A DNA stretch of 63,986 nucleotides, filler included, from Raillietiella orientalis (taxonomy: Eukaryota), in NCBI GenBank assembly GCA_036172245.1. It is 3 parts of 3 records of this genome, joined end to end, with 100 filler letters (N's around TTAATTAATTAA, not from the genome) between each part and the next. Parts side by side here need not be neighbours in the genome. Positions count along the whole stretch, not along the records: positions 29,643 to 58,784 come from JAYWIR010000207.1; 2 more parts are not named here. One strand, 5' to 3'. This document shows, piece after piece, positions 29,643-58,784 of the stretch. A program made the translations under genes and the position numbers. Under the pieces are notes generated by a model. That model made no database searches. It saw nothing but the letters and a program-made list of their open reading frames with translations, and was not told the DNA's origin. Within the stretch, counting starts at the first letter, position 1; each line of letters begins with the position of its first letter.

Positions 29643-29809
29643 GGTGGTCCGACTCGATCGATCTGATCGTCACCAGCGTGTACGCACCGAGCGGCAAGGA
29701 CCTGATGAACAGGATGGCGAGGAAAGAGTTTTTCCTTGCCCTCCGGCGAGACTGGCTGACCGAAGCAGGCGTGCGGAATGCGCATCTGGTTGCAGGCGAT
29801 TTTAACGTT
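29643..29809 (+). mobile_element. L1/Tx1-like LINE copy B, left part (APE endonuclease fragment up to GDFN); 5' end lost in the gap
   Basis: Translates as WSDSIDLIVTSVYAPSGKDLMNRMARKEFFLALRRDWLTEAGVRNAHLVAGDFNV, containing the APE VYAP and GDFN motifs. It continues at 32445 as FNVRLKP...IDHVFLD...LSDH. Confidence 0.9.
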
Positions 29810-32444
29810 GCCAGCGGAGTTTTATCAGTGCTTCGCGGGGGAGCTCGTCCCCCTGGTGCATCGCTTCTCGTCGCTTATGAGGGTTTCGGGGGATGTATCC
29901 AACTCCTTCCGCTCAGCGAGGGTGCGTCTCCTTCCGAAAGGTGGAGACGCACGCCATTTAAACAACTGGCGTCCGGTCACTTTGGTGACCGCGGACGTCA
30001 AGTTGTTCTCCAAGATGTGGGTTGCGCGCCTAGGGAGAATCGTGCCGTCCTTGGTGAGCCCGGAGCAGAATTACGCTGTTCCCTGGAGATCCATGGTCGC
30101 GAACCTGCTGTTTGCACGCACCTGGATGCAGCTGCAGAAGCGCGTAGCGCAGCAAAGTCGATCCGTGACAAATGCCACTGCTAAAGGCACACGGTATCGA
30201 CAGAAGCAACAAGAGGATACGCCGGGTGCCTTGGCGGTCGCAGTCGACCTCCACAAGGCGTTAGATTGCGTGAACCAAGCACTCCTATTGGAGCTCTTGG
30301 AACGCCTTGGTCTCCCGGCTCAACCTTTGAAGTACTTGCGCGCATGCTGGCGCCACGCGCTTACTTGAATTTGTTTTAGCGGCTGCCACGTGTACGGTAT
30401 TCCCGTGCGCAGGGGCATCAGTCAGGGTGACAGTTTAAGCCCGTTGCTCTCCAGCATCTTCGAGTTGGTGCTGAGAGCGTACAGGCTGACGCTGGAATAC
30501 CTGCCTAGCTCTTGCCCGGGAACGCCTGCCGTGGCTGCCTATGCAGATGACCTGCTTCTTCTGTTCCCCATGTCAACCCCGGCGTCCAGTGTCGAAGATT
30601 TCTTCGACCTGATTCGTCGGGGAGCGGGCATGAGCGTGAATAGAGAGAAGAGCGTGGTCGTTCCTGTGGGTGCGTCGTGGGAGGGGCAGTCCGACTGGAT
30701 CTGCCTGGGGATCCCCACGGCGGGGTACTTCAAGTACCTTGGCGTTCCGTTGGGCGACCTCGGCGCTGTCGAGGCGTGGTCGGACTGCCTTTATAAGGCC
30801 GAGTTGGCCGCCAGCCCGTTCATTAACGGAAGTTCACCTTGCCGGAACGGGCGGCTATTTGGAACACCTTCGTGGCCCCCCTCCTTCGTCCCCTCTTTTT
30901 TGTCTTGTACCCCCCCTATGCGGCCAAAGAGCGGGCAAAACGCCTGCTAAGGAACGCTCTTTGGGGTCCGGCGCGATCCAGGATTTGCCTGAAAGACCTC
31001 ACTGCTCCAAGTCGGGATGCTGGGCTTGGCATCCTGACGATCGAGAGAATCGGACTGCAAGTGCAGTTCCGGATGCTCGCACTTTGTGCCGAGCTATGGA
31101 CTTCCCCCGCTGTGTGCGCCTGCGCGCATCCTCCTGAGGAGATGTGCAGCCAGTGAAGGATTACTTCCATTGGTGCCTGGCTTGCGCCACAGGAAACAGG
31201 GATTTGGCTATCCTTTCAGAAAAATCGCCACCCTATTGGCAGCCAGTACGTGGATTACCTGCAGTCCAATGAACTATAATGCTTGGAAGCAGGAATCCAT
31301 TGATTCGTGGGCTGCATTCTTAGGAATGAGCCGTGAAGATCTTTGCCCCCTGCGTCGATTCCAGCCTTGGTCACTCCAAGATGTCATGCAGGACGACTTG
31401 AAGCATTCCTCCTTGGCCGCCACCCCCCTTGCCGAAGCACTGTCTGCCCTCGAGACTCGAGATGACAGTAGCCAGCCGGCAAGGTGGGAGTTCTCCTGCA
31501 CTATTGCAGGAAGAACAAAACCAGTTGGCAAATGGACCACGAGCGAGCTTGCGGATGCTGCCACTCCTCCTGCTACACCAAAGGGGTTTCTTCGGTGGGG
31601 AGAAGCTCTTGGTGTTGCCCCCGAAGAACTTATAGTCCCTCCCCGGTGTTTGGATGGTTCGGTGTTTTGCCTTGCATGGAAGCAAGAAGTTTTCTCGCAC
31701 TGGGGATTGCGCTACAACGAGCGGCGCCACCGAGTTTCCGGTGGGGTGGCTTCTCCCTACTGTGCCCGGTGCGGAGCGACGGAGTCGTTTTCGCACCTTG
31801 TTATGGACTGCGGTGCCCTCCAGGAACTGTGGAGGAGGCTAGCAGCAGCTCTCCCGTCACCAGGAGACACCGCTTGAGAAGTGCTGCGACGGTTCTTCCA
31901 GACACAAAGACTTTCGATGGCTGCGACGATTTCCACTGTTGGTTGCATCCGCGCCATCGTCACGGTCCGAGACGTGCTGGAGAATACTGGAGAGCAATGT
32001 TGTGTCACCAGGAAGGCAGCTGACTTCATCAGGTCGGCAGCTAGATGGCGACACTTATGGAAAGACACAACGGAGGAGCTAACCGGTATCCGTCGCCGGA
32101 TCAGCAACGGCTTAGAACGACGAAATCGGTGATCCGCCCTCATTTTATTTTTGATTGGTTTTTTTGTTCTTGCGTTCTTTTTCCCTATACGCTCCGCAGT
32201 CCTTTTGGTGCTAGAACTTTTGAGTTTCCCGGTGAGTGCGGAGCAACACCAAAGTTCCCTGGCGCACTCCTCCCATTTCCATTTTTTTTTTTTTGGACTC
32301 CCCTCAGTCGCCCATGTTCTTCCGTTTTCCTGGCCTGTGTACCAGGGGTGAATCTCCGCTGCATGTTTTCAGAGTCGAGAGCTGGAAACAATTGTTTCCA
32401 GCTCGTTTATGTCAATAAACGTCCCGGCGTGACATGGTGAAAAA
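29810..32444 (+). mobile_element. L1/Tx1-like LINE copy A, 5'-truncated, inserted in copy B (RT + CCHC + 3' UTR; degenerate)
   Basis: Starts at LPAEFYQ. RT motifs: LLPKGGD..NNWRPVTL, AVDLHKALDCV, GISQGDSLSPLL, YADD (30540-30551), FKYLGVPL. C-terminal CARCGATESFSHLVMDC near 31760-31810. T-rich 3' UTR, AATAAA at 32414, short A tail. Several stops and frameshifts. Flanked by a 10/11 direct repeat. Confidence 0.92.
32414..32444 (+). terminator. LINE 3'-terminal motif of copy A: AATAAA + imperfect stem-loop + short A tail
   Basis: aataaa-cgt-cccgg-cgtga-catgg-tgaaaaa, homologous to the ends of B, C, D, F and G. Confidence 0.75.
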
Positions 32445-34168
32445 TTTCAACGTTCGCCTGAAACCAGATGGGCAGAATCCCGAGCGTGACCTGGTCAACG
32501 AGGTGTGCATGGCGGTGCACACCTGTAATTTGTTGGCCAGTGCACCGGGGATGGAAGACAGCATTGACCACGTGTTTCTTGACGAGCACCTGTGCCCTCG
32601 CGTGGGCAGGCGCGGCAAGTTACCGTGCGAGCTGTCCGACCATCGCCCGCTAGTCCTCGAGATCCATCCGCGCGACAGGGGCCCCCTCTCGTCAGCGTGG
32701 CGTCTCCCAGGGGACTGGCTGAAGCTCCCGGACGCGGCGGAACATCTCCGCACGTTCATACGGAGCTTCAGGCTGCGGACACTCCAGGATTGGGACCGCT
32801 TCAAGCGGTCGGTCCAGGAGTTCTGCGAACAGTTAACTCTGCACCGCCTACCTGCTTGATTTGGGGACGGGGTACGTAACGAACGAGCCTATCTGCAGGC
32901 TCGCCGTTACACCAGGACCCTTGACATCCGCAGGCTGGAGGAATACAAAGCAAGAGCCGAGAGGCAAGCCTGGCAGTCAGGATCGGCCAGCTTGCTGGAC
33001 GATCAGGGCCAGGAGCAATCGGCACCCGCTCGGATCCGCGGTCTGCTGCGGCGTTTTTACTCCTCTCTGTACGCAAGAACGCCTCCCGAGCGGAATTTTT
33101 CACGACTCCTGCTTCCGGTAGGCACTGCTGCGATCGGGGAGGAGGGCAAAAAGTCCCTCGACGAGCCTTTCACGATGGGCGAGATCATCTCGGCCATCGG
33201 AAAGCTCAAGAGCCGCAAGGCTTCAGGGGAGGACGGTCTGTCCGCGGAGTTTTATCAAACTTTCGCGGCTGAGCTTACTCCCCTGGTACAGCAACTCACC
33301 TTGCTGATACGCGAGACAGGTGACGTTCCCGCCTCGTTTCGTTTGGCAAAGGTGCGGCTCCTCCCTAAGGGAGGAGATCTGAGGAGCATGAACTACTGGC
33401 ATCCCATCATAATAGTGAATGCGGACGCCAAGTTGATAGCAAAGGTTTGCGCTGAGCGTTTGGGACGGATTGCAAACGCCTTCATCAGCCCGGAACAGAC
33501 GTATGCTGTTCCGGGTCGAAGCATGGAGGCGAACCTGTTTTACGCTTCCACCTCGCTAGAGCTCCAACACGAAAGAAGCTTGATGCGCACCGGAAATTCC
33601 GGTGAGTCCGTTAGCCATGCGACGGATGGTCGGATGGGTGAGGGAGCACTTGCGGTCGCTGTCGACTTGCGTAAGGCATTCGACAGCGTCGACCAGAATT
33701 TCCTGCTGGAGCTTTTGGAACGCTTGGGCTTCCTGGCCTCATTATTGGCCTATCTGCGCTTCGTTTGCTTCCCTCGGGGGATCGTCGCCGCCTGGAACAG
33801 GGATACGGGAGGATTTTGCGATAAAAATGGCATCCATAACGGCTTCGAATTTTTGTAGGGGGCTTTGCGATTGCCTCACCTGAATCAGGGAATACGGTTA
33901 TAGCTTGTCACCATGCTGCAAAGGATGCAGCGGCACCAGCAACAACAGTGTTCCTTTTCCTTACCCTTCGCAGATTTGTTTTCTTTTTGTTTTGTTTTTG
34001 TTTATTCTTTCTTCCCCTTGGTGGTGTGGTGGACCGTACCGGTTAGCGAGTCGGTGACCCGGCAGGCTCTGTGGTTCTACGTGCGTGGCTGGAGCACTGG
34101 TCCAACAACAGCACGTCTTTGCTATAGTTGATTTTTTAATGAACGCCCCGGAGAAACCCTGGTGAAAA
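32445..34168 (+). mobile_element. L1/Tx1-like LINE copy B, right part (end of APE, N-terminal RT, internal deletion, 3' UTR)
   Basis: ORFs 32434..32859 (IDHVFLD, LSDH) and 32992..33858 (DEPFT, GEDGLSAEFY, AVDLRKAFDSV). Jumps at about 33760 from AYLR to the C-terminal RGIVAAW motif. The 3' UTR (gtggtggaccgtaccgg...ggtgacccggcaggc) matches that of copy F at about 50900-50945 on the minus strand. Confidence 0.9.
34138..34168 (+). terminator. LINE 3'-terminal motif of copy B
   Basis: aatgaa-cgc-cccgg-agaaac-cctgg-tgaaaa. Confidence 0.75.
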
Positions 34169-34169
34169 T

Positions 34170-34550
34170 CTTATGGAGATAGATTGCTTTCTCTAGGGCT
34201 CTCTTTCCTGCATAGATTTTCCTTCCTTGTCCGGCTGGCGCCCCTAAAACGGGATTGCTCGTCATCCGCCCTTTCATCGTTTCGCACCGCTGCACATGGA
34301 GCCATGTGCTTACAAAGAAGTGGTTGGCCTTTATACTTCTGGAAGCCTCATAAGTCTGCTCCGCGCTAATTATGGAGTCTGCCACCTGTCTCAGATGCGC
34401 AGCCTATAGCGACTTGGCGTCCGTGTTAACAATCGTGATCGAACTCTAGTTGCTTAATTTCATGGGTCCCCTTCCTTCGGAAGGGGCCTCATTCTGACTG
34501 ACTGAAACGAGCCGGGAACATCGCCTTCGTCTGAGATGAGCCGTGTCAAC
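34170..34550 (-). pseudogene. Older, strongly decayed LINE RT fragment (copy C, reversed segment)
   Basis: ORF 34122..34385 (SIISAEQTY..RSIKANHFFVSTWLHVQRCE...PAGQG...AGKRAL..IYLHK) aligns by eye with copy D RT (SIISPEQTY..RSMDSNLFFASTWMHAQRCE...PAGQG...AGKGALALAVDLHK). Confidence 0.85.
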
Positions 34551-34559
34551 TCAAGGGTC

Positions 34560-35190
34560 ATTTGGTAGCGTTGATGCTTATTGTGGAGTGTGTGGCGAAA
34601 AGGAATCCTTCCTGCACCTAATCATAGACTGTGGCGATCTTTGAGCCCTTTGGGATCCATTCTCGTTGATCTCGGAAATCTCGGTAGGTGACCACGAGTA
34701 CATTTTCGGACGCCGCTTCATGCATGACCCTCTGCCTCCAGCCGCATCTTTAGCAGGTATGTGCTATCTACGCGCAATCAAGGCAATCAGAAACGTAAGA
34801 AAAAGAGGCCATAATAGAAAGGATGCCAACCACTGGGACGACATCTCCTTTAAGACCGCTTCCCGATGACCTTACGTGGTAGAAAAAAGAAAAGGGCTTG
34901 CCAGTTTAATGAACAGGTTGCGAAAGACGTCTTACGGGGAGCATTGATCCCTTCATGTTCTCCTCTTTCGAAGGGGTAAAATGTTCCTTGTTTTCTCAAG
35001 CTCTGGCTCGATTTTCTTTCCTGTGATCTACCTTTCCCCTTTTTCTCTGGAACGAACCTCAGAGGTCTGCGTTCCGGTTCCAACAAGTCCGTCGAGCGTG
35101 GCAGAACCTAGTGTTCTACCACATAAAATTGAATAACGGCTTTCATTATGATGTTTTATAATGAATGTTTCGGCAAATCCAAGAAGAAAA
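34560..35190 (+). pseudogene. Decayed LINE 3' end (copy C, sense segment): ORF2 CCHC finger, C-terminus and 3' UTR
   Basis: 34582-34632 translates CGVCGEKESFLHLIIDC, followed by PLPPAASLAGMCYLRAI (compare ALRPSAALAALCCFRGI in copy F). Ends in a degenerate terminal motif aatgaatgtttcggcaaatccaagaagaaaa at 35160-35190. Confidence 0.75.
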
Positions 35191-37471
35191 CCTCAGAAAG
35201 CCTTCTACGAAAATAGTCAGAGGCTTAGTGCAACTTGTCTCCACGTGATCGATGATTTCGTCGTCAGAACATCAAATGACTCTGCATCGCCGAGCCACTT
35301 CATTCTTCATTTACATCCTCAAATTTAGATGGGCAAGCGCTCAGTCGATGCGGACTCTTGTCTGCCGAGAAAAGAGAAGCAATGAAAGATTCGAGCGACA
35401 GCCAATTACGAATTTGAAGAAAAGAAACCTGAATTTCCAAAAAAGCCTGCATTTTTTCTGCAAACCTTTCATGTCCAGGTTACACCTGCTTTTTCACGCG
35501 CAGGCAACGCATTGACAACAGTTATAGCATTTTTTTCCAGCTACAACAAAAGTCCACTTAAAAGAGTACAAAGTAAAGTGCAAAAAAACATTTTATTTTC
35601 AAAAAGTACTTTTCTCAGAAGACCTCCCAAAATCAGGGAGAAGACCTTATCATTGCTAAGCAAACGCAGCTCGACTCTTCACTGTAACTGTAAAAGTGTT
35701 TCCTGGAGAAGAATCCCAATCACAACTCAGTCTAGAGGGAACAATTCCAAGATTCCTCCCAGTATACAACCTAAAGCATATCCGGAGATAAATGCGTAAA
35801 CAAAAGATGCAACGAAAACCATAGGCAATTTGATTAAACATTCGAAAGAGCATTTGTCTTAATAAACAGATGCACACCTACGATTTTACAGGCAAGTGAG
35901 AAGACGTACACTGGAAGAAATGAGACAGAAGTGGTGAAACCTTCAAGAAAAGAATTCCGACTGAAAACAAAGTGAAACATCAAAACATGCGTTCTCGGTA
36001 GGCATGGAAGAACTCGCATGTTCACACGATCTTCACAATGCAAAAAGAACGAAGTCATTTCCAATCCACACAACTAAACAAACGTTTTTCTGGATTGCCG
36101 AAAGTTTACGGAAAAAGAGCACCAAAGAAAATAAGAGAACAGAGCCTTTCCACACACATTGAATAAACAGAAGACATACCTTAATGTTAGACCTCCTCGA
36201 AAGTGTAAAACGCAGTTTGCGCTAAAAGAAGTAAGAATAAAATAAGCATACATATATACTTCCTCTTCCAGCAACTGAAATGATAATCAGTTCCATTACA
36301 TCAGAAATTTAATCTTACAGATAAAGATACGTCACAAACACCACAAAGGTCCTGAGAACGTGAATTAGTTAAGGAAAATTCACAAGAATCTAGAACGTTA
36401 GTGAAAAAAGAAATACAGGGTCCGTGTAAATTTTCGAAGACAATAACATCTTTCAGAACTTCATCAGATGGAACAGTAGCGTTTCTAACGCCAACAAAAC
36501 CAGCAACAAACTTGGCACGGCAACACAGCACCGATGTGACCTACGATGAACACAGATTCAGAAACATTAAAACATCAGAAACAACAAATCAAAAGAAAGA
36601 AGCTAGCAGCGCTGAAAAAACCGATGCGACGAGTTTGTTCAACGTGAGAAAAGAAGTTGCTAGGTCACGGCCAATCAGAAAAGCGAGGTAGCCAGCAGAT
36701 GCATTCAAGATCGAAGCGCCTCCGCATGCAACACACTAATTGTCGACCATTGAGGAGGTCAATTGGGGAGACAGCCTTCCGCCTTGATTCGAGACCTCGC
36801 ATGCGCATTCTCCACGCATCTTTATCGACAAACAAAAACACCCGGACGCTTCTGCGAACAAAGGAGGTCCCGATTAGCGAAAGGGAGCAAAGAGGGAAGT
36901 AGCGAGGAAGGAGAACGCTTGGAAGGGAAACATGGGACAAAGTCAGGATGGCATGGGACGCATGAGAGGGAGCAGAAGAAAGAGAGCCAAAACCCTACTT
37001 TAATAAGCGGACTTTTCTCGCGAAAGCATGCGCGCTTGTCGAACGGACGCAGACTCTGCATACGAAGTCTTCCGAGACTTCGGCAACAGCGGTGCCTGAC
37101 CTGAAAAGGGGGCTGCGCAGCTAAGTAGGGAAAAGAAGGGGCTGCTGCGCAGCCAAGAAGTGCCTGTACAGAAGAAAGTGATCTTGTCTTAACTTGATAG
37201 CGGACATCAATCTCGCACAAACGCCACCGAGAGTTCCCTTCAGGAACGCCAGCAGCCTCTCCCACAGAGCGCACCACAGGGTCAGGGTGTGTTGCCACAA
37301 GCACGAAACATTCCTCGCAACGGCTCCACGAACGCACGCTGCGACCACGTTGAGTCTCTGTAGCCACGGACGACCACTGCGCACGCACCACAAGCGACCA
37401 GGCCGTTCTTTCTCAGTTCGTACGCCAGAGAACAGAAAGGAAGAAAAGCGTTCCCTCAGCTGCAGAACGAG

Positions 37472-39520
37472 ATGAAGGGTGCGGCACCTACAGAGGCATG
37501 CAAGAAAAGGAAACGCGCTCTGACGAGCAAATTCATTGCAACGCAGAAAATGTTTCTTACGATGATGAACGAAATTCGGCACAACATGCTGCCTTCCGGA
37601 AATCGACACAGAACGAGTCCTTCTTTGAAGGTGACACTCGACCGCAGCTCCGACGCTCTTTGTGATTTATACAGAATTACGGGCATCGCCAACCTATACG
37701 AGCCACGGTTAACACTTGTTACGACATGTGTGAAATGTGTCGAACTCACAGGGCTCTGGAAATTTTCTCATCGCACTACCGGTAATTCAATGCATCTAGT
37801 TTCCCAGCTGCAGAAACGCAACCTGCAAACCACAGCAGCGGAGCGGCCCCGCATGAGCGCTGCGAAGCTGCGTTTAGCATGATAGGCAAAATGTTGTGTG
37901 AAGGCACAGATCAGTGCACAAGCTGTCCCTGAGAGAGGTCAAACGGTGAAGAGACTCATGCAGCCGGCCCAGGCGTCTTCAGCGGTCCGTTTTTGCAACG
38001 GTTCCGACTCACTAGAGGCACCGGGAAAAAAAAGAAATGAAGCGAAGCGAATCACCTCCGTAAGAGTGAGAAGATGCCATGACAGCTTCATATGGAGAAA
38101 TGCAGGTCGCAGCGACAAGAGGAACCGAAAGGCGAATGGAAAGCAATCAAGAATCCTTGCCGCTTTCCTCTGCTCACTCATGCTACGATGCAACGGAAGA
38201 TGGGTGGCAGTCAAGCGCTACAGGCAAGAGCATCTCCTTCAGCTGAGAATTCCAGACATTCTTTTGCAACACTCGCAGTTCGCAAACGCGCTCGGCTCCG
38301 TGTTTAGAATGCTTCTCGCGCTATTGCCATCCAGTTTGCGGCCAGAACGCAGAATCTCCCATACCAAACGTTAGATGCGTCCCGTTATGATCTCCCACAA
38401 TCGCAGCAGATGCTTTTCCTGGAATCCCGCGCTGAGGATGCGCACTCTCCGTATGCCTTGAGCAACAGCACCACTGGCCAGTGAAGCTTCTCTTCAGCTC
38501 GCTCGTCTGTCATCCAACACAACCCTGCGAAGCTTTCCTCATGCAGTTGCGCAAAGAGTGAATGTCCGCGAAACTTATCTGAACTTTCGAATAGGATTTG
38601 CGCGAAACACGGAGTGGCGTTTTCTCTGTTCCAATCGCCCTGAAGATCCGGAAGGTGTGAAGAGACACCGTTTCTCCTGCTTGAAGCAGCATTCTGGATC
38701 AAGTCAGGGACACGCTGGCCTCAACCTTTGCAAGCACGAATCGGAGCGGATAGTAGCTGAGAAGCAAGGCACGCAAGGCATCTTCCTCCTCGTACCAGTT
38801 CGTAGTCCAATTGCATGCTGTCCCCTGCACTTTCTATCTTGCTGCGTTTTTAATGACGAGGGAGGGTGCGAAACATCTACAAACCGACCTCTGGCTTCAG
38901 CGAGCATGCCAGGCTGGGAAGTACTCTGAGCTTTCGGGATTCTGCTTATCCGAGGTAAGAAGCAAATAGCAATTAAGTCTTCCTTTAAGCGTCGTCCTAT
39001 TTCAAAAGCATGTTAAGGAATGCAAAAAAATTCTTCCAGAATTCTTAATGGGAAAATTCGGAAGTGAAATGGAGTATTCATTTAGAATTTTTCTCTTTCG
39101 TCTCATAGATTGGCAGCATAGAACGAGAGAAGTTCCCTATCTTGAGACTGGACCAACCTGTTCATGCAGTCAGTGAGAAACATCCTTGCACTTCAGAAAA
39201 AAACGTGTCCACGTCGAACACACAAACACTTGCGGAGGTACACCCCGAGGATGATTCGGTAGGTGCCAAAGGCATGCTGTTGGAATTTCAGGGCCTCAGA
39301 ATTGCATGCTGTGACTCATTGCGCATGCAGTGTCGTTAAAGTTTAACGACGATTGCGGCAAGCTGCAGAAGTATGTCACGTGCAAATTATTAGCCTCAAG
39401 TGTGCAAACAGAAAGGTTTTTTTCACAAACTGAGCAAACGCCTGATGCCAGTAGGCGTTGCATGAGCAGCTGCGTACAAGGAAGATTGGCGCATCCTCCT
39501 CTTAATCACGTAGGCGCTGC
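37472..39520 (+). pseudogene. Possible highly decayed hAT-family transposase remnant
   Basis: Motif-like pieces in the expected order: CVKC...GNSMHLVSQL (BED-finger-like, about 37727-37810), IACCPLHFL (CxxH-like, about 38810-38835), NSEVKWS (RW-motif-like, about 39055-39075), LLASSVQTERFFSQ......SRR (hAT C-terminal SxxxERxFS-like, 39393-39455). The pieces lie in different frames and no TIRs were found. Confidence 0.4.
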
Positions 39521-42085
39521 ATTCCTGTCCCTCTTCGCTTGTTCACGATTCTACGTGCTTAAAGTACATCACAAGTGTCACGTTGAAAGAGCCCTGCATT
39601 CTTTACAGATTCACAGCAAATGCTGAATGTTGGCTGAAAGAATACCATGGAGCACCACCTGGCCATCGACTGACATTGCAGAATCGGATGAGCACCTTGC
39701 GATTGTTTATCCGCCAGCAACGTCCCCGGCTCTCGAAACCGAATTACAGAATATTCAAACGCCTACATTTTGGCGCTTCATCGACCGGCATTCGAAGTTT
39801 GTCCAGTTTTCGACGGATCGAAACTTTGGAAGGAAGACTTGCCGCATGCTAACCTGCAGTCTCTCAAAGATAAACGTCCAGCACATCGTGTGTTTTCTGT
39901 ATTTTAAAAAGAGTTTGATTCTGTAATTTTTTTTATTTTGCCCATTAGAGAAGAGGTTTTCTTATCATTCATTTATAATTTTAAGATAGAGTTCGTTGCC
40001 CTATGCAAAGTATAGTTTGCTGTGATGTTTCAAGATCTTACTATAATGAGTATGCTGAGCATTTCATTGATATTTTTTGCATCGCCATTATCTAGTTTTT
40101 ATATAGTCTTTTGTTTACCATCACATGAACTACCATCATCTATAGTTGTCACTAACTGAGCAGAGACAATACGATTATTATAAACTCCATTTTCTTTTCA
40201 TTTCATTTCCATACGCTTTCCTCACAACTTAATCTGCAGTGTTATTTAGATCATCCTTATCATTAGTATTTAAAATTACCTCTACTCTGTCTTGAAATCA
40301 TTTTCAAAACCCATTTTAGCAACTTGTGTACGGGAACCTTCTCTTTCGTTCAACATTTCGATGATCGTATTCTTCATTCCCGGTCTCGCTAAAGTTCCTA
40401 CACATGCACCACACGCGTGAACTTCCTTTGCCCACATTCGCAAATAACCGATGGATCATCCCGTTGTAAACTTCCGAGCACGACACTATCATCCCCTATG
40501 CCTTTTAATTTTTTTTCACTCTGTCCACACAAGAAGAAACTCCGTTATTCCCATGTCTCTTCATGTCTGGCCCAAAGTCCATAGGATTTATAATATACCC
40601 AATACGTTTTTCTGAAAACATTACAAATATCCTATTCATTATTACTCTGATAAACCCTCAAGCTCAATACTCGCAAGCTAATCACAAATCTTATTTGGTA
40701 TTCTTATCAGCTAATCTCTTATCTCATTCTCATCAGACTTGACTTCCTGTACTTAAACAAATAGCCACTACAGTCGATCAGTTACCTTCTGTACGCAAAG
40801 ACCGTGTGTCTTCCCATGTCTGAATTCCATCTAGATTTTAGAAAGATTCCTTCGACCGATCCTGTACACAAAACGTACGCGATACTCGTTGTCAAGTATG
40901 CCTCATACGAAGAGTCCCGAGTGGATTCCTTCAAGTAAAATGGCATGAAGGAACAATTATTATCCGTCCATACTCTCTCATGGAAGACAATGTACACGTT
41001 CCATTTTTAAATATTCGTTCACATTATTTTACAGTTGTTTTCATTTTCCCTTCACTTTTGGGTCCTTTTATGCAACAGATAAAAAGTCAACCCAGAATTC
41101 AGTTTTTCCTGTTACGTTTGGAAAATCTTTGAACTATCTGCTCTAGAAGTATTACTTTACAGAATTGCCTTTCTTCTAAGGTCACGTGAGCACTCCTCTT
41201 TGGAGAAAACTCCTCTTTTTCAATTCGCTCTTAGCACAGAACAAGAGCCACAAATGGATTGCTGTTCACTCTGGAAGACAATTCCAAATCTCAGGAAACC
41301 AAGTGTCAAATATGGATAACAGCCTAATATGAGCCCAGAATCTGGAATTTATTGCAAAATCTTTTTAAGAGTAGCTCTGCTCATGGTGTTTTTAGAAGTT
41401 ACTATGGAAAGATGCAAAGTAGTGCAGCTTTCTTATATTCTGTCAAACGAGAGATGCGCCTTGCTAGGCTTGAGTGGTCCCGGAAATAAAAAAAACCAGA
41501 GATACACACGAAAGAAAAAGGTATCATAATATATCAAAAACAAGTAGCGTAAGCCAAATAGTATTTGTTATGAAGCCCCTTTTTTGGCGACCAGTTTCTC
41601 TCCATAAGGAACTATATTGAGGAATCATAGAAAGACGGTAAGCAAAACTCTTAAATCCGGCGTTGAAGCTGATAATGTCAATATTTCTCATCATCCCAGT
41701 CGGTAATTTTATAATTTCAGCCTACAGTGGCTTTCCTCACCAAAAATTTACTGTTTTCTTACGTCTTTTTCTTCACTAATATAAGACCGTCTTGCCAATT
41801 TTAAACCTTCTGGCAACATCTGATATGCCCCTAAACAATAATTCTTTCAGCGTCAAGCATTGAAGCAAATGCCTCAAATTGAACATCATGAATGCCCTTG
41901 AGGGTAAATGCGGAAGCAAAGTCGCTTACCAATTTTTTGCTAAATCCCTTGAACGCAGTCTGCAACGTTTTCATGTGGATCCAAGTCAGAAGGCAAGATC
42001 GGATTGCAAATCCAACCTTGCGGTTGCACTCCTCCCCCTACGGTCCAAACTCGTTGTTTACCTGAATTCAACTGACGAACAGGAA

Positions 42086-47677: not shown

Positions 47678-47755
47678 GGACACCGACGATGTACACAAAA
47701 TACCACACACAAGAAAAAGCGCTTTCCTACTACCCTTTGAGGAGTGAAAAAAAAA

Positions 47756-47926
47756 CACGTCCTCCAACTAGCCTTGGAGGCGGCCGTCTGCAACGAGGCA
47801 GCCAGCTCCTCCGCGGCTCGCGCCAAGGCTACGTCATCGATAATCGTGTCGATGACGGATGCCGCTGCCGGCTCGCTACCCTCGCTGTTGACAGAGTCAA
47901 CAAAGAGGTTGTCGTCGGTAGCGGCG
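47756..47926 (-). pseudogene. ORF1 C-terminal fragment of another LINE copy (X) lying between the 5' ends of D and E
   Basis: Minus strand translates ...IIDDVALARAAEELAASLQTAASKASW, matching AFAQAAEELAATL in D ORF1 and VAFERAAEELAASLQP in F ORF1. Confidence 0.75.
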
Positions 47927-47928
47927 AG

Positions 47929-50803
47929 TTCTTTTTCTCAGTGTGCGAAAGTACGCTCCACGACAACGGTGCACGGACGTGTTCTGTGTTGCTCCTCGAG
48001 CGTGATTCCTTTCCGTCTTCTTATGTGTGATGTGCCCGAGTGCGTCCACTGAGAAGCCCACGGAGCCCCTGCAGCAAAAGATGGATGTGGAGGCTGCTAC
48101 TGACAGTGGAGACTCTACTCCAGATGTCCGGTCTGCCACTGATTCTTGTGTCTCGCCCCCGGCGAGAAGCTTCGCCGCCGTCGTCAAGGCGGCGGCAGCC
48201 AACGGAGCACCGCCCGACGAAGCAGAGCTGCAGGCATAAGCAGCCCATGGCTACAAGACTGCGCTCTGCTATCCGGTAAGTGCTGCTATCTCCGACGGGG
48301 TCGGAGAAAATTTGTGGGACGAGCTTTTGCGCGTCGGGGTCCGACAGGACGATCTCCTGGCCGTCATGCCGGTTTACGCGCTCGGACACTGGGAGGTGCA
48401 CTGCAATGAGGCATCCCTAGTCCAGCGCCTTCTCCGCACCCCGCTAAATATCCGCAGGAAGGAGGTCGTCCCGTCGGCCATGGACCAGTTGTTCGTGGTC
48501 CGATTATCCGCCGTCCAGGTGGACACGCCCGATCGCGTGCTCGTCGCTGCACTAAGTGCATTCGCCACGGTGCACGCGCTGTGGAGAGCAGACAATCCGA
48601 TCCAAAGAATTGCATCTCTCCACTGCGAACTTGCCATGGCGCGTGTCACCATGGCGGATAGGAGGCAAATGCCTCCGCACTTGCAGGTGGGCGATGCGAT
48701 CGTCCACCTTAAATTTGCCGGTCAGCGACCGGTTTGCGGCATTTGCGGTGCCGAGGGCCACCGTCCGTGGACGTGCCCTTCACGCAACTGCCGCTATTGT
48801 AAACAGCTCGGCCACTCCATCAAACAGTGCGCCGAGCTGAAGAGAAAGCGGCAGGCGAAAGGCCGCCAACAATCGACCCCGTCCGCGCCGAAAACGTCCC
48901 CCGTTGTGCCACGGGAGAAATCGGCCGCGAAGAGCGGGGCATCTTCGAGTGCGGTCCCGCGAAAAAGGGCGCGGTTGCTTCAGGAAAGCCACCATCCCTG
49001 ACAGCCGCGCAGACGGGAAAGATGCCACGTCGCCCTGGGGCAAATCGCCCCCTTCGAAGCAGCCTAAGAGTGCGGGCACGCACTTAACCAAGGCTACTGA
49101 ACCGTCCGCGTCGGCTTGCGCGTCCAGAGGAGCACACGGGAAACCATCCGCGGGTACCCTCGGAGCTGTCTCTGAACGGCAGTCTGCTCCTACGGCGGTG
49201 GAGATCACGTCATTCACGCCGAAGGCAAAAGCAGCGAAGGCTGCAATATCGCCTCGCGGAACGACGGCAATGACCGCCGTTTCGCCCGCATCGGCTAAGG
49301 AGCAGGTGCAGTGCGTAACGGGGACGGAGCCGTCTCCCGCCGCGAGCGCGAAACGTGAGCCGGCATCTCCCGCCAAACAAATGAGGGAGGCGTCGGCCTC
49401 CCAGGAGGGCGTCCCCGACGCGGGCTGGACTCGAGTCTCCAGGACGCCCACAAAGGGGTAGAAGAAGGTTGACCCTTCAATATTCCCTATCCTTAAGGTG
49501 GGTGGGAGGCACAAGAGAAGCACGCCGAAGAAGGTGCGTACCCAGGTACGCACTACGGCTGCGTGCTCTGTCTCCGTCGCTTCGCGCGAGAGTGCGGTTG
49601 CGGAAGCAAAAGCTCCGGAAGCTGCGTTGGCGACTGCGAAGACCCCCGCGCGGGCAGGGCAAGCCTCCACCTGCCGAAACAAAAAGAGACTGGCAAAACG
49701 CCAGTCTCGCGTTAGGCACTCCGACTCCTAGATGGAGTCCGAGTGCAAACAAATGTAGCGCGCATCCCGGGGTAAGCCGGAAGCGCGCCGGGCTAAAGTG
49801 CGAAAGCACGAGCCTGTTGCCGGAGGCGGTTCCGGCTCCTGCACGGAGACCGAGGCGATGATCCTCGGCTCCCAGGACTCAGCTGGCCGCGATGTGGCGG
49901 CGAACAAGAGCGATTCCGCTTCCCAATCCGCTCTCCTACGAGCTGACTTCTCGCCGGACGGGGCGAGGAGCACGCCGTCATGTCCGCAGCAGTGATGCGT
50001 GGACTCGCGTCCGCTCGTCGCGTCAGCGTGGCCTGTTGGAATGTCCACGGGCTACGTGATGCTGACAAAAGGCGGACGGTTGCCAACGCTTTGCGCGCGT
50101 TCGATCTGGTGCTGCTGCAGGAGATACATAGCATCTCCGAACGGCAGGCATCGGATCTGGAAGAGCGCGCGGGCGGGACGCTACACTGGCGGCAAGGCTC
50201 CGCGCACACGTGCGGAGTCGCGTTCCTCGTCCGAGGCAGGGTGGCGGAGGCGGTGCGGAACGTTTGTTTCGACGAGGAAGGTAGTGTAGGCGAACTTGTC
50301 TTCAAGTGTTCCGAATCGATCGACCTGGTCGTTAAGAACATCTACGCGCCGAGCGGCGGCCGGCATTACGCCCAGCGACTTGCATTCCTGGGTGGCCTGC
50401 GCAGCCGCTAGCTCGCTGACTCCGGCCCTAACGTGGCGCACCTCCTTGCAGGAGACTTCAACGTCCTCCTGCCAACAGAGGAGAGATGCCGCTTGAGGAA
50501 GAAGCAGCTGGTGAGCAAGGTATGCGCGTCCGTGCGCGTGCAAAACTTGCTTGCTGGTGAGCCCGGGATGGAGAGATCGCCGGACCATGCGTTCCTGGAT
50601 GAACACCTGCTCTCACGAGTAGGTCGGAGAGGGCGCCTGCTGTCCGCGACTTCGGATCATACGAGACTGGAGTTCGAGTTCCTCCCGCCTGGCAAAAGGC
50701 CTCCGATGAATGTCTGGAGGTTGCCGGACGACTGGCTTAGCAATTCGGAGGCGGCGGAGCATCTTCGCCAACACCTCCGGGGCTTCGCCTTCTGTGAACT
50801 CGA
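47929..50803 (+). mobile_element. L1/Tx1-like LINE copy E: 5' UTR, ORF1 and APE domain, cut by the antisense 3' end of copy F
   Basis: ORF1 pieces from 48030 (SFAAVV motif; CGICGAEGHRPWTC and CRYCKQLGHSIKQC knuckles in 48312..49001; long Ala/Ser/Pro/Lys-rich tail to TGA at 49993-49995). ORF2 from ATG 49995: CWNVHG, LQEIH, NIYAP, GDFN, SDH. Multiple stops. Confidence 0.92.
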
Positions 50804-50833
50804 TTTTCACTCGGTTGCGCCGGGGCGTTTATT
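50804..50833 (-). terminator. LINE 3'-terminal motif of copy F
   Basis: Minus strand aataaa-cgc-cccgg-cgcaa-ccgag-tgaaaa. Confidence 0.8.
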
Positions 50834-53800
50834 CTTTGGAATAAAACAAACGTTGGTGGCTGACCAGGTGGTCCGGCCACGCGCTGGTACACAAAATTAA
50901 GCCTGCCGGGTCACCGGTTCGTATTCCGGCACGGTCCACCACGACAGTAGAGGGGCCAAGGACAAAACAAAAAATAAAACCAAAAAAAAGAAATATATAA
51001 AATCAAGATCTGGGGGGCACGGGAAGGGATCACAGTCTGCTGGGGGGCCGTTACATCGTTTGCAGGATGCCGGCAAGCTGTTTTTGGATGTTTGAATCCA
51101 GATGGGTCCATCCTGTCGCCGTCCGCATAAATTCGGCTGCGCACTGGACAGCACCCTTATCGCGAGGTCCTCCCGTTGCTTTGCTCCATGCAGCGACGAT
51201 CCCGCGAAAGCAGCACAGAGCTGCTAACGCGGCCGAGGGCCGAAGGGCGTCGCAAACGAAGAGGGATGTGATTGCGCCTCTAAGGTTGCCACAGGGGTTA
51301 CCGATTGCCGCAACAAAACGGTTCCAAAGGGGCCGAAGAGCCACACAATCCTAAAGGAGATGAGTGAGGGACTCCCATTCTCCACACCTCGCACAATTAG
51401 GGCTCACCGCTTCCCAGGTGCAATGGTGTCGGCGGGCGTTGCAGGGGAGTTCCCAATGCAGCAACAATAGCGCCGACTCCTGCCATTTTAAGGGGAGGGT
51501 GGAGGTGTTCATCAGCACCGGGGGCCACTTTAATTGTTCCCGCGGAACATTAAGCAGCTCGCCCCAGCGCCAAAGTCCAATAGGGGTGGTAGTCCGGGCC
51601 GCGGTATCGCAGAGAATTCCCGTTTTCCATTCTCCGATCTTTTTCTCCGTACCGGAGATTTTGATGTAAACATCCCATTTCGCAGCAGTGTTGCTGTTCA
51701 AATGTTACGCGAGCGGAAACAGCATTGCAGCGAGGGGAGTTTTTCTTGCCCACGCTCGTTTTTGGAGGTTCTCTAGGACCTCTTGGAGCGTCAGGCGGTC
51801 ATTACAGGCGAACAATTGTTTCTGCCCTTCTTGGGTGCATTGCTGGTTGCTATTTGCCCACATCTGAACTGTTTCCTGCAGCCATGCAGGTCCGTTAACG
51901 GGGCGACAGCAGAGCCATCCTGCGTTCTTCCTCATCAGGTCAGCCACTCTCCGTAGCTGCAACCCGCAATGACCGACAAGGCGGCGCCGACGGAGCGCAA
52001 GGAAGGATGACAGTCCCACCTTGCCTGTAGCCTGCTTGACGAGGAGACGTGCGGGCTCGCACCAACTGCTATTCCAATATTTCGCCACTAGGGCGAGTAA
52101 CCGAAACTGGAGCTGGAGCTCCAGCAACTCTAGCGTCAGGAGGCCGAGACCGCCGTTTCGACACGGAGCGCTCAAGTCCTCAAGCCGGACTCGAGCCCTC
52201 CCATTACCCCACAGGGCAATCCTTAGGAGGTCCTTCGTCCGCTTTTTAGTCTCTGTTGTGGGGGGACAAACAAAAAGCAGGGAACGGAGGAGGGGCGCCG
52301 CGAATGCGTTCGACACCGCGGCCCGTTCCGTCAGGAAAAACCTGCGGCCCGAAAACGGGCCGATCGCCGTCTCTACCTTTTGGAGGCAGCTGGACCACGC
52401 ATCCGAAGGGAGGTAATCACCCATCGGTACACCGAGGTACTTGAAGTACCGTACCGTGGGGATCCCCAAACAGACCCAGTCCGGCTGCCCTGCTCACGCC
52501 GCACCGATTGGCATGACGGACGACTTCACCCTGTTCAACTCAAGCCCGGTTCCCCTACTTAGCAGGTCGAAGAACTCCTCGACCGCCGATGCCGGGGTGG
52601 ACATAGGGAGTAGCAGCAGTAGGTCTTCCGCATATGCTGACACTGCGGGCGTACCGGGATAGTCGCGCGGCAGGTGCGCTAGAGTTTCCCTGTACGCTCT
52701 CAGTACCAACTCGAAGTAGGTACTGAAGAGCAAGGGACTCAGGCTGTCTCCCTGCCGTATGCCGCGTTGCACCGGTACGCCGTGCACGGTGTGTCCACTG
52801 AAAAAGATCTGGATGAGCGCTTCGCGCCAGCAGGATCGCAGGTAGGTCAGCAAAGAGACCGGGAAGCCCAAGCGTTCCAGGAGCTCCAGGAGGAGCCTCT
52901 GGTCGACACAGTCGAATGCTTTATGCAAGTCGACTGCGACTGCGAGGGCTCCCTCCACCCCCAACCATCCCGTTTCCTAGCGGCGGACATTCCGAAAGTC
53001 CGGTTGCCCATCCTGACCCTTTCCTGTTGGAGCGCGAAAAAGGTGCTGGCGAGGAACAGGTTGGCATCCATGCTCCGCCCGGGAACAGCATATGTCTGCT
53101 CCGGGCTAATGAAGCTTTCCGCTAACCGCCCCAGGCGTTCAGCCCACAATTTCGCCAGCAACTTGACGTCCGCGTTTATCACGGTAATTGGCCGCCAGTT
53201 GCTCATGCTCCGAAGGTCTCCTCCCTTAGGGTGGAGACGCACCTTTGCCGAACGAAACGAGACGGGGACGTCGCCCGTTTCGCGGATCAGCAAGGTGAGT
53301 TTCTTCACCGGAGGAGTGAGCTCTGCCGCGAAACATTGAAAAAATTCCGCTGGCATTCCGCCTTCCCCTGGAACCTTCCGCCTCTTGAGCTTTCCGATGG
53401 CCGAGATGATCTCGCCCATCGTGAAAGGCTCGTCGAGGGTCTTTCTATCTTCCTCACCGATCGCCGGAGCGCCTTCCGGAAGAAGAAGTCGCGAGACATC
53501 CCGTTCCGGTGAAGCGCGCGCGTACAGGGAGGAGTAGAATTTTTTTAATAAGCCTTTTACCTGGGGAGGGGGCAGAGTGCTCCGAACCCAGGTCGTCCAG
53601 TAAGCTGGCCGACCCGGATTGCCACGCCTGCCTCTCGGCTCCCGCACGGTATTCGGCTAGCCTGCGTACGTCTGGTGTTCGCGCGTAACATCGAGATTGT
53701 AAATACCATCTCTCGTTACGCACGCTTTCACCAAACCCGGCAGGCAGGAGATTCATAGGGAACTCGTCGCAAAAATTCCGGACCGAGCGCTTGAAGCGGT

Positions 53801-55048
53801 CCCAGTCCTGAAGCGTCTGCAAGCTGAAACCTCGTATGAATCCGCGGAGATGCTCTGCGGCTTCCGGAAGTTTCAGCCAGTCCCCCGGTAAGCGCCACGC
53901 AGATGACGGCGGACCCTTATCGCGTGGGCGCACCTCTAGTACGATCCGGTCATGGTCCGACAGTTCCGACGGTAACTTGCCGCGCCTGCAAACGCGTGAG
54001 CATAGGTGCTGGTCAAGAAACACGTGATCTATGCTGTCGGCCATTTCCGGATCTCCCGCGAACAAGTTGCGCGTGTGCATTTCTGCGCACAGCTCGTTCA
54101 CGCGGTCCCGAAGTGTGTCGGACGCAACTGACAGCAGGCGCAGGTTAAAGTCACCTGCGATTAGGATCGCTTTGGGCACTCCCGCTTCGTCCAGATATTC
54201 GCGCCTCAGGGTAAGGAAGAAATCTCTCCTTGCCTTTGCCCTTAGCGCGTCGCTGCCGCTTGAAGCGTACACGTTGGTAATGACCAGATCGATGGAGTCG
54301 GACCACCTGATGGTCAACTGCCCGACGCGACCGGCACTATCGAACCGTACGCCCTTTGCCGCAGCCTCGACAGCTGAACGAAGCAGAAACGCGACACCGC
54401 AAGATTTAACGGTGCCGCAACGCCACAGCAGCCGTCCACCCGAGATACGCTCGATCTCCGTTGCTTGATCTGCGGAGATCACGTGGATCTCTTGCAGCAG
54501 CACCAGTTCGAACGATGCCAGGGTGGAGGCCACGTCTCGTCTCTTGCCGTCGTCGCTTAGCCCGTTGACGTTCCAACAGGCAATTCGCAGACGGCGGCAA
54601 GAGGCGATTCCCGACATTAAGGCTGGAAACGTGGCGTTGCAGCACCTGTCAACGGACAGGTGGGAGGGACGAGTAAGGAAACCGCGGCCATCTCAGGCAC
54701 TTGAAGCACCTGGGGCACAGACTCTACCCTTTCCCTCCCTCCGGGGTCGCAGCGTGAGGTTACCTCTCGAGTAGAGTCCCCGGAGTTCCCCACTTTATTG
54801 GCACGCTCGCTTCCCTCAATTATCTCTCCCTTTTCCACGGACGGGATAATTTTGCGAATAGCCTTCTTCGTGCGATTGACCTTCGGGCGGGAGGCCGCGA
54901 TGCCGAAAGCTGTGTTTTCCGCCTCTGCTTCAGAGTTCGGAATCTTTGAATTCTTGATCGAGGTCGGACGCCTTAAGGCCTTTTTCGCGGATTTAAGGGC
55001 TGCAAGGACGCAGCGAGCTCCTCCGCCGCTCGCTCAAAGGCGACGTGG
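50804..55048 (-). mobile_element. L1/Tx1-like LINE copy F: end of ORF1, complete but disrupted ORF2, 3' UTR; ORF1 cut by copy G
   Basis: 53454..54617 APE (CWNVNG, LQEIH, GDFN, IDHVF, SDH); 52847..53647 and 52494..52964 RT (DLHKAFDCV, GIRQGDSLSPLLF, YAED); 51705..52469 FKYLGVP; 51351..51701 CARCGEWESLTHLL. AATAAA at 50833-50828, then hairpin and AAAA. Confidence 0.93.
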
Positions 55049-55079
55049 TTTATTACCCGGTTGCGCCGAAACGTTTATT
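55049..55079 (-). terminator. LINE 3'-terminal motif of copy G
   Basis: Minus strand aataaa-cgt-ttcgg-cgcaa-ccggg-taataaa. Confidence 0.8.
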
Positions 55080-57768
55080 ATAATATCAACTGAGAACTGT
55101 GTTCCCAGGCAAGGGGAACAGAAAAATGGAGAGCAGATTTCCCGGAACACAGTCCGGACACACTGAGAGTTTGCAACGGGAAGGGGTAGGACAATAAATA
55201 AATAAACTGGGTGAAGGGGCGGGGACAGGGGTATACCGTCTAACCGTTCCTATTCTCAGAACCAACGGTGAATGCCGCCGAACTCCATCCTCACTTCTGC
55301 TCCAAGATTTGGCCACCCGGCAGCCATTTGCAGGTTGCAGGCTGCGGTGTCGGGGACCGATGTTGGGACTGCTTGCATCTGCAATACGTGGCGGGCCCTG
55401 ACAATGGCGCGGACGCAGAAGATGATTGCGACGACTGCTCCAAGAGAGAGTCCGCCACGCGTGTAGAAGCGGCGCATCCAATCCAGTGCGGTGTGTGCAG
55501 CGTGCAGGAGCACTGAGGACAGCCGCTGCCACAGATCCTGGAGGGCACCGCACTCAAACAGCAGATGCGAGAGCGATTTCACCGCTCCGCATTGGGCACA
55601 GTTCAAGGAAGCAACTCCCCGGAAATCAGGTGCGCCCGCTGATTGCAGTACAAACCCAAATGCACCAGCAGAAAAGCGTCCTGTTTTCACCAAAGGGGGA
55701 AGAGAGTCGTGTGCAAACACGCAGAAGGGACCACAAGTTCATCGGTGGGCACCCCGAGGAGCTCACTCCACCTGAGAAGCTTCTTTCCACGAAGGCGGGG
55801 TGTGGCAGCGTCTGCAACTTCTCAAGTCCGCCAGCCGCCCAGCAGTCGGGTTTCGCCTGCGATTTCGCAACTGATCTCCCACCTCGCCGGCAGGTCACTG
55901 TCATCTCGCACCATCAGTGCACACAGTGCTTCGGCGAGTGGCGTAGTGGCTAGGCGTGTCCACTGGTCCTGGTCTTCCAGCACCTCCCCCACTGGACAGT
56001 ATGGGGAAAGTTTCACGCAACGGAGTTCCAAACAAGACACATCCTGTTGCGCTGCCCAGGACGATAAGGCTTCCTGCCTTTAGGCGTTGAAGTTCGTCGG
56101 TCGGCAGGAGATCCACTCATGCTTTCCCAGAAGCGTGGCGAGCTGCTTCAAAGGGAAGCCGAATCCTCTCTGGGCGCGCTCCGTGCGCAGATGCAACGAA
56201 CGTACTCCGTCGCCACCCGTGCAGCGCCGCAGCAGCAGCTGCCCTGGAGCACACCAGGGAGTAGTCCAGAGCTGCGCACAAAGTGCCAGCATGCGGAACT
56301 GCACTAGCAGTCCGATCCGCTCCAGCGTCAGAATGCCCAATCCTGCATCCCGCCGAGGAGCCGCCAAGTCCTTCAGGCGTATCCTGGACCTCGCCGATCC
56401 TTAAAGGGCGTTCTGCAACAGGAGTTGCGCCCGGTGCTTAGCCGAGTAGGAAGGGGGACAAACAAAAAAGAGGGGTCGGAGGAGGGGGGCAACGAAAATG
56501 TTCCACAGGAAGGCCCGTTCCGACAGGAGAAACCTGCCGCCATGGAACGGGCCCATAGCAGTCTCGGCCTTGTGAAGGCAGTCCGACCACGCTTCTGCTG
56601 AACAGAAGGCGCCCTAGGAAACGTCGAATTACTTCTTGCACCTGCTTGTGGGGATCCCCAGGCGGATCCAGTCGGACTGCCCCTCCCACGTAGAGCCAAC
56701 CGGCACAACGGTTTATTTCGTCCTGTTCACGCTCACGCCCGCTCCCCGACGAATGAGCTCGAAGAACTCCTCTAGCCTGGACGCCGGGGTGGACATGGGC
56801 AGCAGCAGGAGAAGGTCGTCAGCAATGGCGACCACGGCCGATGTTCCCGGGCAGGAGCTCGGCAGGTTGGCCAGCGTCAGCCTGTACGCCCTCAGCACCA
56901 ACTCAAAGAACATGCTGAAGAGCAGAAGGATTAAGCTGTCTCCCTGCCTGATACCCCGCCGTATGGGAATGCCGTACACGTGGCGCCCGTTAAAAGGGAT
57001 ACAGCATAACGCGTGGCGCCAGCAGGAGCGCAAGTAGGCGATGAGGTGCGTCGGGAGGCCTAGGCGTCCCAGAAGCTCCAGAAGGACGTCCCGGTTTACG
57101 CTGTCGAACGCTTTGCAGATATCGACGGCGACCGCTAAGGCTCCCGCCGTGCCATCGTGCATTGAACACCGCCGCTTACCTTTGACAGCGGCGATTTCGG
57201 CTGCCTGACTCTGCTGCGCCTCGCGCTGCTGCAACTCGAACCATGTTCGCGAGAAGAAGAGATTCAAGTCCATGGACCGCTCCGGAACAGCATACGTCTG
57301 CTCCGGACTTATTAAGGACTCTGGGATTCTCCACAGGCGCGCGACCCATAGCCTGGAGAACAACTTGAAGTCCGAATTCATCAATGTGATCGGACGCCAG
57401 TGGCTGAGGTGGCGCAAATCACCGCCTTTCGGCAGGAGCCGCACCTTTGCTGAGCGGAAAGAAGCGGGAACATCTCCCGTCTCACGCATCAGCGAAGAAA
57501 GGCTTAGCACCAGGGGGAAGAGCTCCGCCGCGAAGCACTGAAAGAACGCCGCCGGGTGCCATCCTCCCCAGGCGCCTTACGCATCTTCAGGCCCGCTATG
57601 GTGGAAGATACTTCTTTCGCCGTGAAGGGCCAATCCAATCTGGGGCGTTCCTCCTCGTCGATAGCAGGGTTGCCCGTCGGAAGAAGCAGCTCGGAGAGAC
57701 TGCGTTCCGTGGACTCCTCCGCGTACAACGAGGAGTAGTAGCGCTTGACTGCGCGGTGCACGGCGGAT
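55049..57768 (-). mobile_element. L1/Tx1-like LINE copy G (same subfamily as A): RT + CCHC + 3' UTR, starting just upstream of the RT
   Basis: RYYSSLYA...LDWPFT; 56713..57510 RT (HWRPITL, VDICKAFDSV, GIRQGDSL, IADD); APRRDAGLGILTLERIGL, matching copy A (APSRDAGLGILTIERIGL); CAQCGAVKSLSHLLFEC. AATAAA at 55079-55074 plus hairpin. Confidence 0.92.
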
Positions 57769-58784
57769 CCTCCAACCACCACCTCAACCACCGACGGACC
57801 GCCTCCTTGCGAGCAACAGCCCGTCGCAATAAATACACAACTCCCGCCTGCTGAACAGCAGGCGGAGGACGGTAAGCAAGCACAATAAACACACCAACCC
57901 GTGGACTCTCCTCCTGCTGGCGACTGCGCGTAATCTGTTGGAACGTCAACAAGTTGCGCGACGACGACAAGAGGAGAGAAGTGGCCGCCAGCCTGCGGGA
58001 CTTCGACCTGGCGCTTCTGCAGGAGACGCACGTGCTCCACGCAGGGGAGGCCCAGGAAATCGAACGGAACGCAGGCGGGCGGCTCGTATACCAAAACGGG
58101 AGAGACCACACCCGCGGTGTGGCTTTCATGCTGAAGCCAGCCGTCGTTAATGCGCTGCGCGACGTGCACTTCGACGGGGAAGGTCAAATCGGGCAGCATG
58201 TTGCCAAGTGGTCCGACGCGATCGACCTCGTCGTGACCAACGTGTACACGCCCGGCACGAGCTACAGGCGCGGGAACGCACTGCGTTCTTCAAAGGACTG
58301 CGGCGAGATTGGCTGTCCGAAGCAGACATGCGAAAGGCGCACCTCATTGCCGGGGACTTTAAAGTCCGCCTGCTGGCAGGTGCGCCCGACATTCGCGCAC
58401 AGCTGGTCAACGAGATGTGCGCTGCCATGCACGTGCGCAACTTGTTGGCCGGTGACGCCGGGACGGAGACGAGGATCGACCACATGTTCCTCGACAACCG
58501 CCTGTGTTCGCGGGTGGGAAATCGAGGGGCAGTGCCATCCGAACTTTCCGACCATCCCCGGCTCGTGCTAGAAATACACCCGCGCGGTAGAGGTCCACCC
58601 TCCACAGCGTGGCGTTTGCCAGGGGACTGGTTGCGCCTCGCAGGAGCAGCGCAACATCTTCGCTCGTTCCTGCAAGGATTCCATCTGCAGTCGCTCGCGG
58701 ACTAAGACGACTTGAAGAGCTCAGTCCGCGAGTTCTGCGACCAGTTTCCCCTGAACCGTCTCCCTCCAGGTTTCGGCGGAGAAC
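57769..58784 (+). mobile_element. LINE segment H: end of ORF1 plus APE domain, running into the gap (probably the inverted 5' part of G)
   Basis: CWNVN at about 57936, LQETH, NVYTP (57954..58571), then HLIAGDFK, IDHMFLD, LSDH (58208..58705). Head-to-head with G; junction position approximate. Confidence 0.88.

Follow-up and report, generated by a model that had tools for sequence, protein, structure and literature searches.

The nested LINE copies in this stretch of DNA probably reflect sequence choice by the elements themselves: the subfamilies of one LINE clade would each target a word of their own inside the genes of that same clade, and nests would build up through target-primed reverse transcription (TPRT) and feedback. 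In this scheme an L1-group clade with an apurinic-type endonuclease (APE) and a reverse transcriptase (RT) would have diverged into subfamilies, each preferring a target word some 5-11 bases long. These words would find their best matches inside the genes of the clade itself, with a single base and a single orientation for each subfamily, and partial matches elsewhere would be used loosely. Insertion itself would be ordinary TPRT, mostly with 9-17-bp duplications, 5′ truncation and 5′ inversion. Every new copy would supply new target sites, from which nests and clusters could expand.

The window and its nested elements

The window, by which we mean the whole stretch of 63,986 nucleotides, comes from an assembly of 210 Mb in 491 contigs. 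Actin in this assembly is almost the same as cytoplasmic actin of animals, and a protist host was rejected on that ground. A genome search places its LINE stretch (29643-58784) on a contig of its own, C207, and positions 1-29542 on C206. The two 100-base gaps that border the LINE stretch each consist of a six-frame-stop linker with 44 N on either side. Such gaps connect contigs that are unrelated, which voids arguments from adjacency across them. The features are as follows.

1-29542: 180-bp satellite array; a separate contig (C206), adjacency to the LINE stretch not implied
29543-29642: gap with linker
29643-32443, plus strand: element A, truncated by the contig start; 3′ end at the GDFN hot spot in the APE of B
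32444-34168, plus strand: element B, 3′ part; APE from GDFN, then RT; 3′ end at the antisense KAFD hot spot
34169-34557, minus strand: element C, inverted RT piece; target of B
34558-35190, plus strand: element C, zinc-finger end and 3′ UTR; decayed terminal motif, non-clade flank
35191-42070: non-clade DNA
42086-42143, minus strand: Y, APE fragment of the subfamily of X, beginning at 'YAP' codons; 3′ flank of D
42144-47764, minus strand: element D, full length (5.6 kb); ORF1 with CCHC, APE, RT and zinc finger
47765-47974 (about), minus strand: X, ORF1 fragment in which D (sense) and E (antisense) are inserted
47975-50803, plus strand: element E, 5′ part, split by F; carries an APE and an ORF1 that has two CCHC knuckles
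50804-55049, minus strand: element F; 3′ end lies at a TCGA word within E, in antisense; ORF1 split by G
55050-57766, minus strand: element G, 3′ part, from RT to 3′ end; inside the ORF1 of F
57767-58784, plus strand: H, inverted APE piece, truncated by the contig end
58785-58884: gap with the identical linker
58885-63986: 180-bp satellite on a further contig

Every LINE copy in the window is broken. D is the sole full-length copy, with reading frames disrupted by stops and shifts, and its 5,621 positions serve below as the coordinate reference for target sites, onto which pieces were mapped by tblastn. Element A lacks about 1 kb between APE and RT at about 29809, and B has an internal deletion that reaches its C-terminus near 33760. 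Both C and G/H resemble 5′-inverted insertions; H is most likely the 5′-inverted part of G, and locus L267 has a comparable inversion. The stretch at 35191-42070 gave no credible Pfam hit and no match to the fetched loci. Fourteen bases of Y are repeated in inverted orientation immediately after it, at 42072-42085, in a way that resembles a fold-back template switch at a junction. The 180-bp satellite has long stop-free frames on its minus strand; a 24-mer from it occurs 646 times in the genome, and the 100 matches listed are on small contigs and at the start of C11.

Membership of the clade in the L1 group of non-LTR retrotransposons is supported by its proteins. ORF2 has an N-terminal APE (PF03372) followed by an RT (PF00078), as found by Pfam in D and F, and motifs in the translations add a C-terminal zinc finger in ORF2 and a separate ORF1 with an RNA-binding domain and CCHC knuckles. 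The best PDB hit of the APE is the human L1 endonuclease (1.6e-7), and that of the RT is L1 ORF2p (4.8e-19), ahead of R2 (7.9e-13), in a database that holds few clades. For the ORF1 of E, the Atlas matches are CCHC and ZCCHC3-type RNA-binding clusters (0.92-0.96). Pfam zf-RVT had no match in the window LINEs, and a search for APE among long proteins found nothing. The RTs of the subfamilies are 54-71% identical to each other. Homologues are 21-38% identical, except for one metagenome protein, P0001, which is 60% identical to the RT of G and far nearer than other homologues; the clade occurs outside this assembly. In a quick tree of 49 rows, four window RTs and P0001 share one long branch (100) of uncertain placement.

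The elements carry the hallmarks of TPRT, namely target-site duplications (TSDs), 5′ truncation and 5′ inversion, and unlike mammalian L1 they have no poly(A) tail. They end instead in a terminal motif of AATAAA, a GC-rich palindrome-like stretch and GTGAWAA; genome-wide this motif was counted 1,122 times (control 0), and the window has five copies of it. Ends are precise, 24-25 bases from the start of AATAAA. A 3′ hairpin scored better than shuffled sequence in just one of the five window copies.

The earlier note had reported that five of the six 3′ ends in the window adjoin LINE DNA of the same clade, and they do so at the places it gave. The five intact motifs have their last bases at 32443 (+), 34168 (+), 42144 (−), 50804 (−) and 55050 (−). 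The flank of A enters the GDFN codons of an APE, that of B an antisense RT, that of F the antisense end of an APE and that of G an ORF1; the flank of D is a 57-bp APE piece (Y), 86-93% identical to APE at other loci. The sixth end, that of C, has a decayed motif near 35190 and adjoins DNA from outside the clade. An ORF1 fragment does adjoin the 5′ ends of D and E, as claimed, with limits that shift from 47756-47926 to about 47765-47974 (X), E starting at about 47975. X terminates in a target word that G-type elements use too. Because X and Y belong to the same subfamily, and in the intact copy L208 are separated by about 715 bp, D sits in a single element, with about 0.7 kb of target lost and no TSD. 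The far junctions of A, B and G/H are beyond the contig end, so that nesting rests on a single junction for each.

In terms of the genome-wide sites described below, the junctions of A, B and E are at hot spots and that of D at a minor one; at the junction of B, the antisense KAFD target word is short of 7 bases. The junction of G is away from the hot spot of its subfamily, at a site absent among 20 other G-type ends. The F-in-E junction has two further copies, 90-95% alike on both sides, and the three may be one old event duplicated; the pattern for this site is loose, with four matches, three of them of that junction type. In the public run X1 (word share 0.11, contigs only), which covers the LINE parts of the window and not its non-LINE part, one contig links a terminal motif to the GDFN position and another runs from Y into APE. 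The age order read earlier from the nesting (C before B before A; X before E before F before G/H) fits for C only, which is without a relative above 75%; the others, at 88-96%, are unrankable by a measure that takes the best match among fetched loci and is limited by sampling.

Preference for clade DNA and recurrent target sites

The preference for DNA of the same clade, proposed from the window, extends beyond it. With a library of window LINE DNA only, clade DNA was found within 50 bases of 26/90 ends on three large contigs, versus 84/2,640 background points. The ends were the first 90 of 100 listed, from C1, C2 and part of C3, and the background came from 40 evenly spaced 10-kb blocks on the same contigs. 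A profile built from 169 fragments maps 32 of 87 distinct ends to the clade (three exact duplicates removed), versus 150 of 2,640 background points (5.7%; block bootstrap 2.9-9.2%); its training took in test loci and flanks, and the window-only test is the cleaner one. The other 55 of the 87 unselected ends do not map to the clade, which means that specificity is loose.

Where ends are nested, they recur at exact bases. Four positions of D account for 16 of the 32 nested ends: 3541 antisense (6), 2291 sense (4), 4881 antisense (3) and 2020 antisense (3). Each of the four pairs with its own 3′ UTR group, and orientation is constant per site. Position 3541 lies, antisense, in the K-A-F-D motif of RT, where there are 99 ends genome-wide and 920 uninterrupted sites (control 0); position 2291 lies in the G-D-F-N motif of APE, which aligns to the L1 endonuclease, with 58 ends (control 0). 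Both motifs carry catalytic aspartates.

The word TCGA directly follows 166 ends. Among 100 of these listed, at least 29 fit a strict KAFD pattern, and 9 of 20 that fail it also map to the KAFD site. The roughly 1,000 KAFD sites amount to about 0.1% of TCGA[AG] words, which number about a million by an estimate from the background sample (about 27,000 for TCGARNGCY); since TCGA words are far commoner than KAFD sites, the effective word exceeds TCGA and is near 9-11 bases.

Other subfamilies have sites of their own. There are 46 D-type ends, and among the 20 read, 9 are at position 2713 antisense, 2 at the APE 'YAP' site as in the window D, 5 just ahead of another 5′ end that carries the same word, 1 at a different clade position and 3 unmapped. 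Those just before another element's 5′ end would represent tandem insertion. At six loci (L257, L261, L268, L269, L272 and L001) D-type 3′ ends stand about 20 bases ahead of another 5′ end, which suggests head-to-tail stacks sharing a duplicated target. G-type ends number 73, and 11 of the 20 read are at one site, the antisense strand of an X-like ORF1, where the window element E also starts; a twelfth has the same word before an E-type 5′ end. By gene region, the antisense sites include two in the APE linker and others in the APE N-half, the C-terminal domain and ORF1.

Two more groups were observed. One, at L196, L198, L199 and L200 (about 6840-6900), is an extra subfamily ending in GGGTTTAAA or GGGTTTCAA rather than GGTGAWAA; it lies antisense at D position about 2631 at these four loci and is outside the count of 1,122. 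The other is marked by a TCATC flank (L005, L020, L036, L037, L063, L070, L081, L085 and L089); in it, L036 and L085 have a common flank that does not map to the clade, and perhaps another repeat is the target.

TSDs, differing truncation points and diverse hosts indicate that many of these insertions are independent. TSD candidates, mostly of 12-15 bp and starting at the first base past the motif, were found at 29/90 ends, the shortest perhaps by chance. TCGA recurs on the 5′ side of insertions, and its repetition in the 5′ TSD identifies the word as target DNA. Across 30 KAFD loci the median identity of host flanks is 62%, with 16 groups at 80% and two duplicate pairs; five of the 30 have their own TSD at 174-926 bp, and among eight longer KAFD loci L208 and L209 add TSDs, with the host resuming. 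The GDFN loci are less clear-cut. One insert-host pairing, at 90% identity or more, makes up 21 of 30; among 12 long loci, 7 have a TSD or host DNA that resumes upstream, their inserts being 1.55-5.9 kb long, and 5 have no host resumption within 6.5 kb. Part of the 58 GDFN ends may therefore be copied composites.

Region, RNA and duplication as alternative explanations

The earlier note had favored regional rather than sequence-specific targeting, in which chromatin or tethering would draw elements to LINE-rich blocks and sequence would be irrelevant. The clade is indeed clustered: from C1 to C11:4.5 Mb, a neighbor within 50 kb exists for 60 of 94 intact KAFD sites, versus 11 expected, and C207 has 5 ends in 29 kb versus about 5 per Mb across the genome. 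However, the differing sites and orientations do not support a regional reading, because the subfamilies differ and each has its own site and orientation. Moreover, just four bases account for half of the nested ends. The KAFD sites are hit at equal rates inside and outside clusters (10/65 clustered versus 7/46 isolated, p = 1.0; 0.79 and 0.61 at other cut-offs), so that no regional effect on hit rate was seen in this comparison of one subfamily with small numbers. Self-targeting with selection would yield clustering too. Nor is the lack of copies in the satellite and the non-LINE stretch a test: the satellite is on contigs separate from the LINE stretch, and the genome mean predicts only 0.18 ends in its 34.6 kb and 0.04 in the non-LINE 6.9 kb; with so few expected, their absence is uninformative. 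Of the six target words tested, the satellite lacks five and has the sixth twice. Purely regional targeting thus seems to us improbable; a mild regional effect may act on top of sequence choice, and the window is explicable without it. As to the distribution itself, 52 ends are dispersed along the 12.2-Mb contig C1, and C5 has two clusters. Big LINE clusters are at C5:2.32-2.60 Mb, C5:3.50-3.61 Mb, the ends of C9 and C11:4.58-4.62 Mb, several of them at contig ends, and are possibly pericentromeric or subtelomeric.

If sequence is chosen, the word might be set by RNA or by protein. In the first case the donor flank in a read-through transcript would pair with the nicked strand, and the target would be inherited from the site of a master copy. 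The precise ends without poly(A) would suit such a mechanism, and co-transcription with the target can strengthen specific integration of rDNA elements, according to PMC4494074; the flanks, however, are diverse local host DNA that the 5′ TSD repeats, and nothing points to a copied-in donor flank; element end and TSD overlap by 0-1 base in most cases. An RNA-set word is therefore unlikely, though the least so of the alternatives weighed here. The endonuclease presumably determines the word. Target choice of non-LTR elements is described as set chiefly by the endonuclease (PMC4494074), and a hairpin loop of the enzyme changes nicking, with DNA structure stressed over direct sequence reading (PMC1950540); the stretch matching this loop varies among the window elements.

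Neither placement by region nor choice of sequence would be needed if a few ancestral junctions had been spread by segmental duplication, 3′ transduction or composite transposition. Exact duplicates do exist (3 among the 90 ends, two pairs among the 30 KAFD loci), as do the dominant GDFN pairing and the F-in-E copies alike on both sides. Set against these, the KAFD hosts form many groups with separate TSDs and truncation points, which suggests that insert and host histories disagree at this site, and the GDFN inserts vary in length, with host DNA resuming upstream; copying is very unlikely to account for the nests as a whole. Random insertion followed by purging outside junk DNA would increase the nested share, but neither it nor assembly error would yield base-exact, TSD-bearing hot spots across many contigs, and the GDFN-type junction is also present in run X1. 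We give these last explanations almost no weight.

Relation to known elements and significance

The clade resembles Tx1, which also comprises animal APE-RT LINEs with family-specific targets, targets in mobile elements, and TSDs (PMC4494074). In that account Tx1L inserts in the piggyBac-type Tx1D and Tx1-Mar in Mariner-N4_AMi, Tx1-8_Crp and Tx1-4_AMi target LTR elements, and Tx1-9_AMi targets Harbinger (PMC4494074). By its 20% rule for target specificity (PMC4494074), at least three subfamilies here are specific, with more than 20% of flanks at one target: TCGA ends (at least 29/100), D-type ends (9/20) and G-type ends (11/20). The targets listed there for Tx1 are DNA transposons, LTR elements, RNA genes and microsatellites (PMC4494074), whereas here they are coding motifs of the same LINE clade, the element's own subfamily included, and several subfamilies with several sites coexist within one genome.

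There are also parallels in self-insertion. Zepp and ZeppL, L1 LINEs of green algae, insert into existing copies and form nested clusters, and Zepp forms one cluster per chromosome at the presumed centromere (PMC8226300); here, in contrast, the host is an animal, copies are also dispersed, over half of the ends are outside the clade, and several subfamilies have base-exact sites of their own. Nested plant LTR retrotransposons likewise prefer insertion into the same family, but they favor 3′ UTRs, avoid coding sequence and show a weak sequence preference (PMC6911290), unlike the exact coding bases used here. We found no description in the literature of sister-subfamily sites in the genes of their own clade; with subscription journals and Repbase reports thinly covered, novelty is provisional.

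The preference may persist since old LINE copies would offer a landing pad that is harmless and renews itself. An attack on rivals only was considered and rejected: B, F and D bear the word of their own subfamily, and D-type ends lie in hosts that are 82-91% D-like. Since elements also hit their own subfamily, a safe haven fits better. More tentatively, and with somewhat more doubt than belief, we suggest that the clade forms a self-referential guild, in which the endonuclease of each subfamily is tuned to a different conserved motif of the clade, the catalytic motifs of APE and RT included, and the clade is its own safe haven, split into insertion niches. In such a guild a target in a conserved motif could not drift without loss of function, and would be renewed at each transposition.

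Close relatives with distinct base-exact sites are a natural panel for the endonuclease residues that set specificity and for the pace at which specificity changes. They also indicate that repeat clusters can arise through sequence choice alone.
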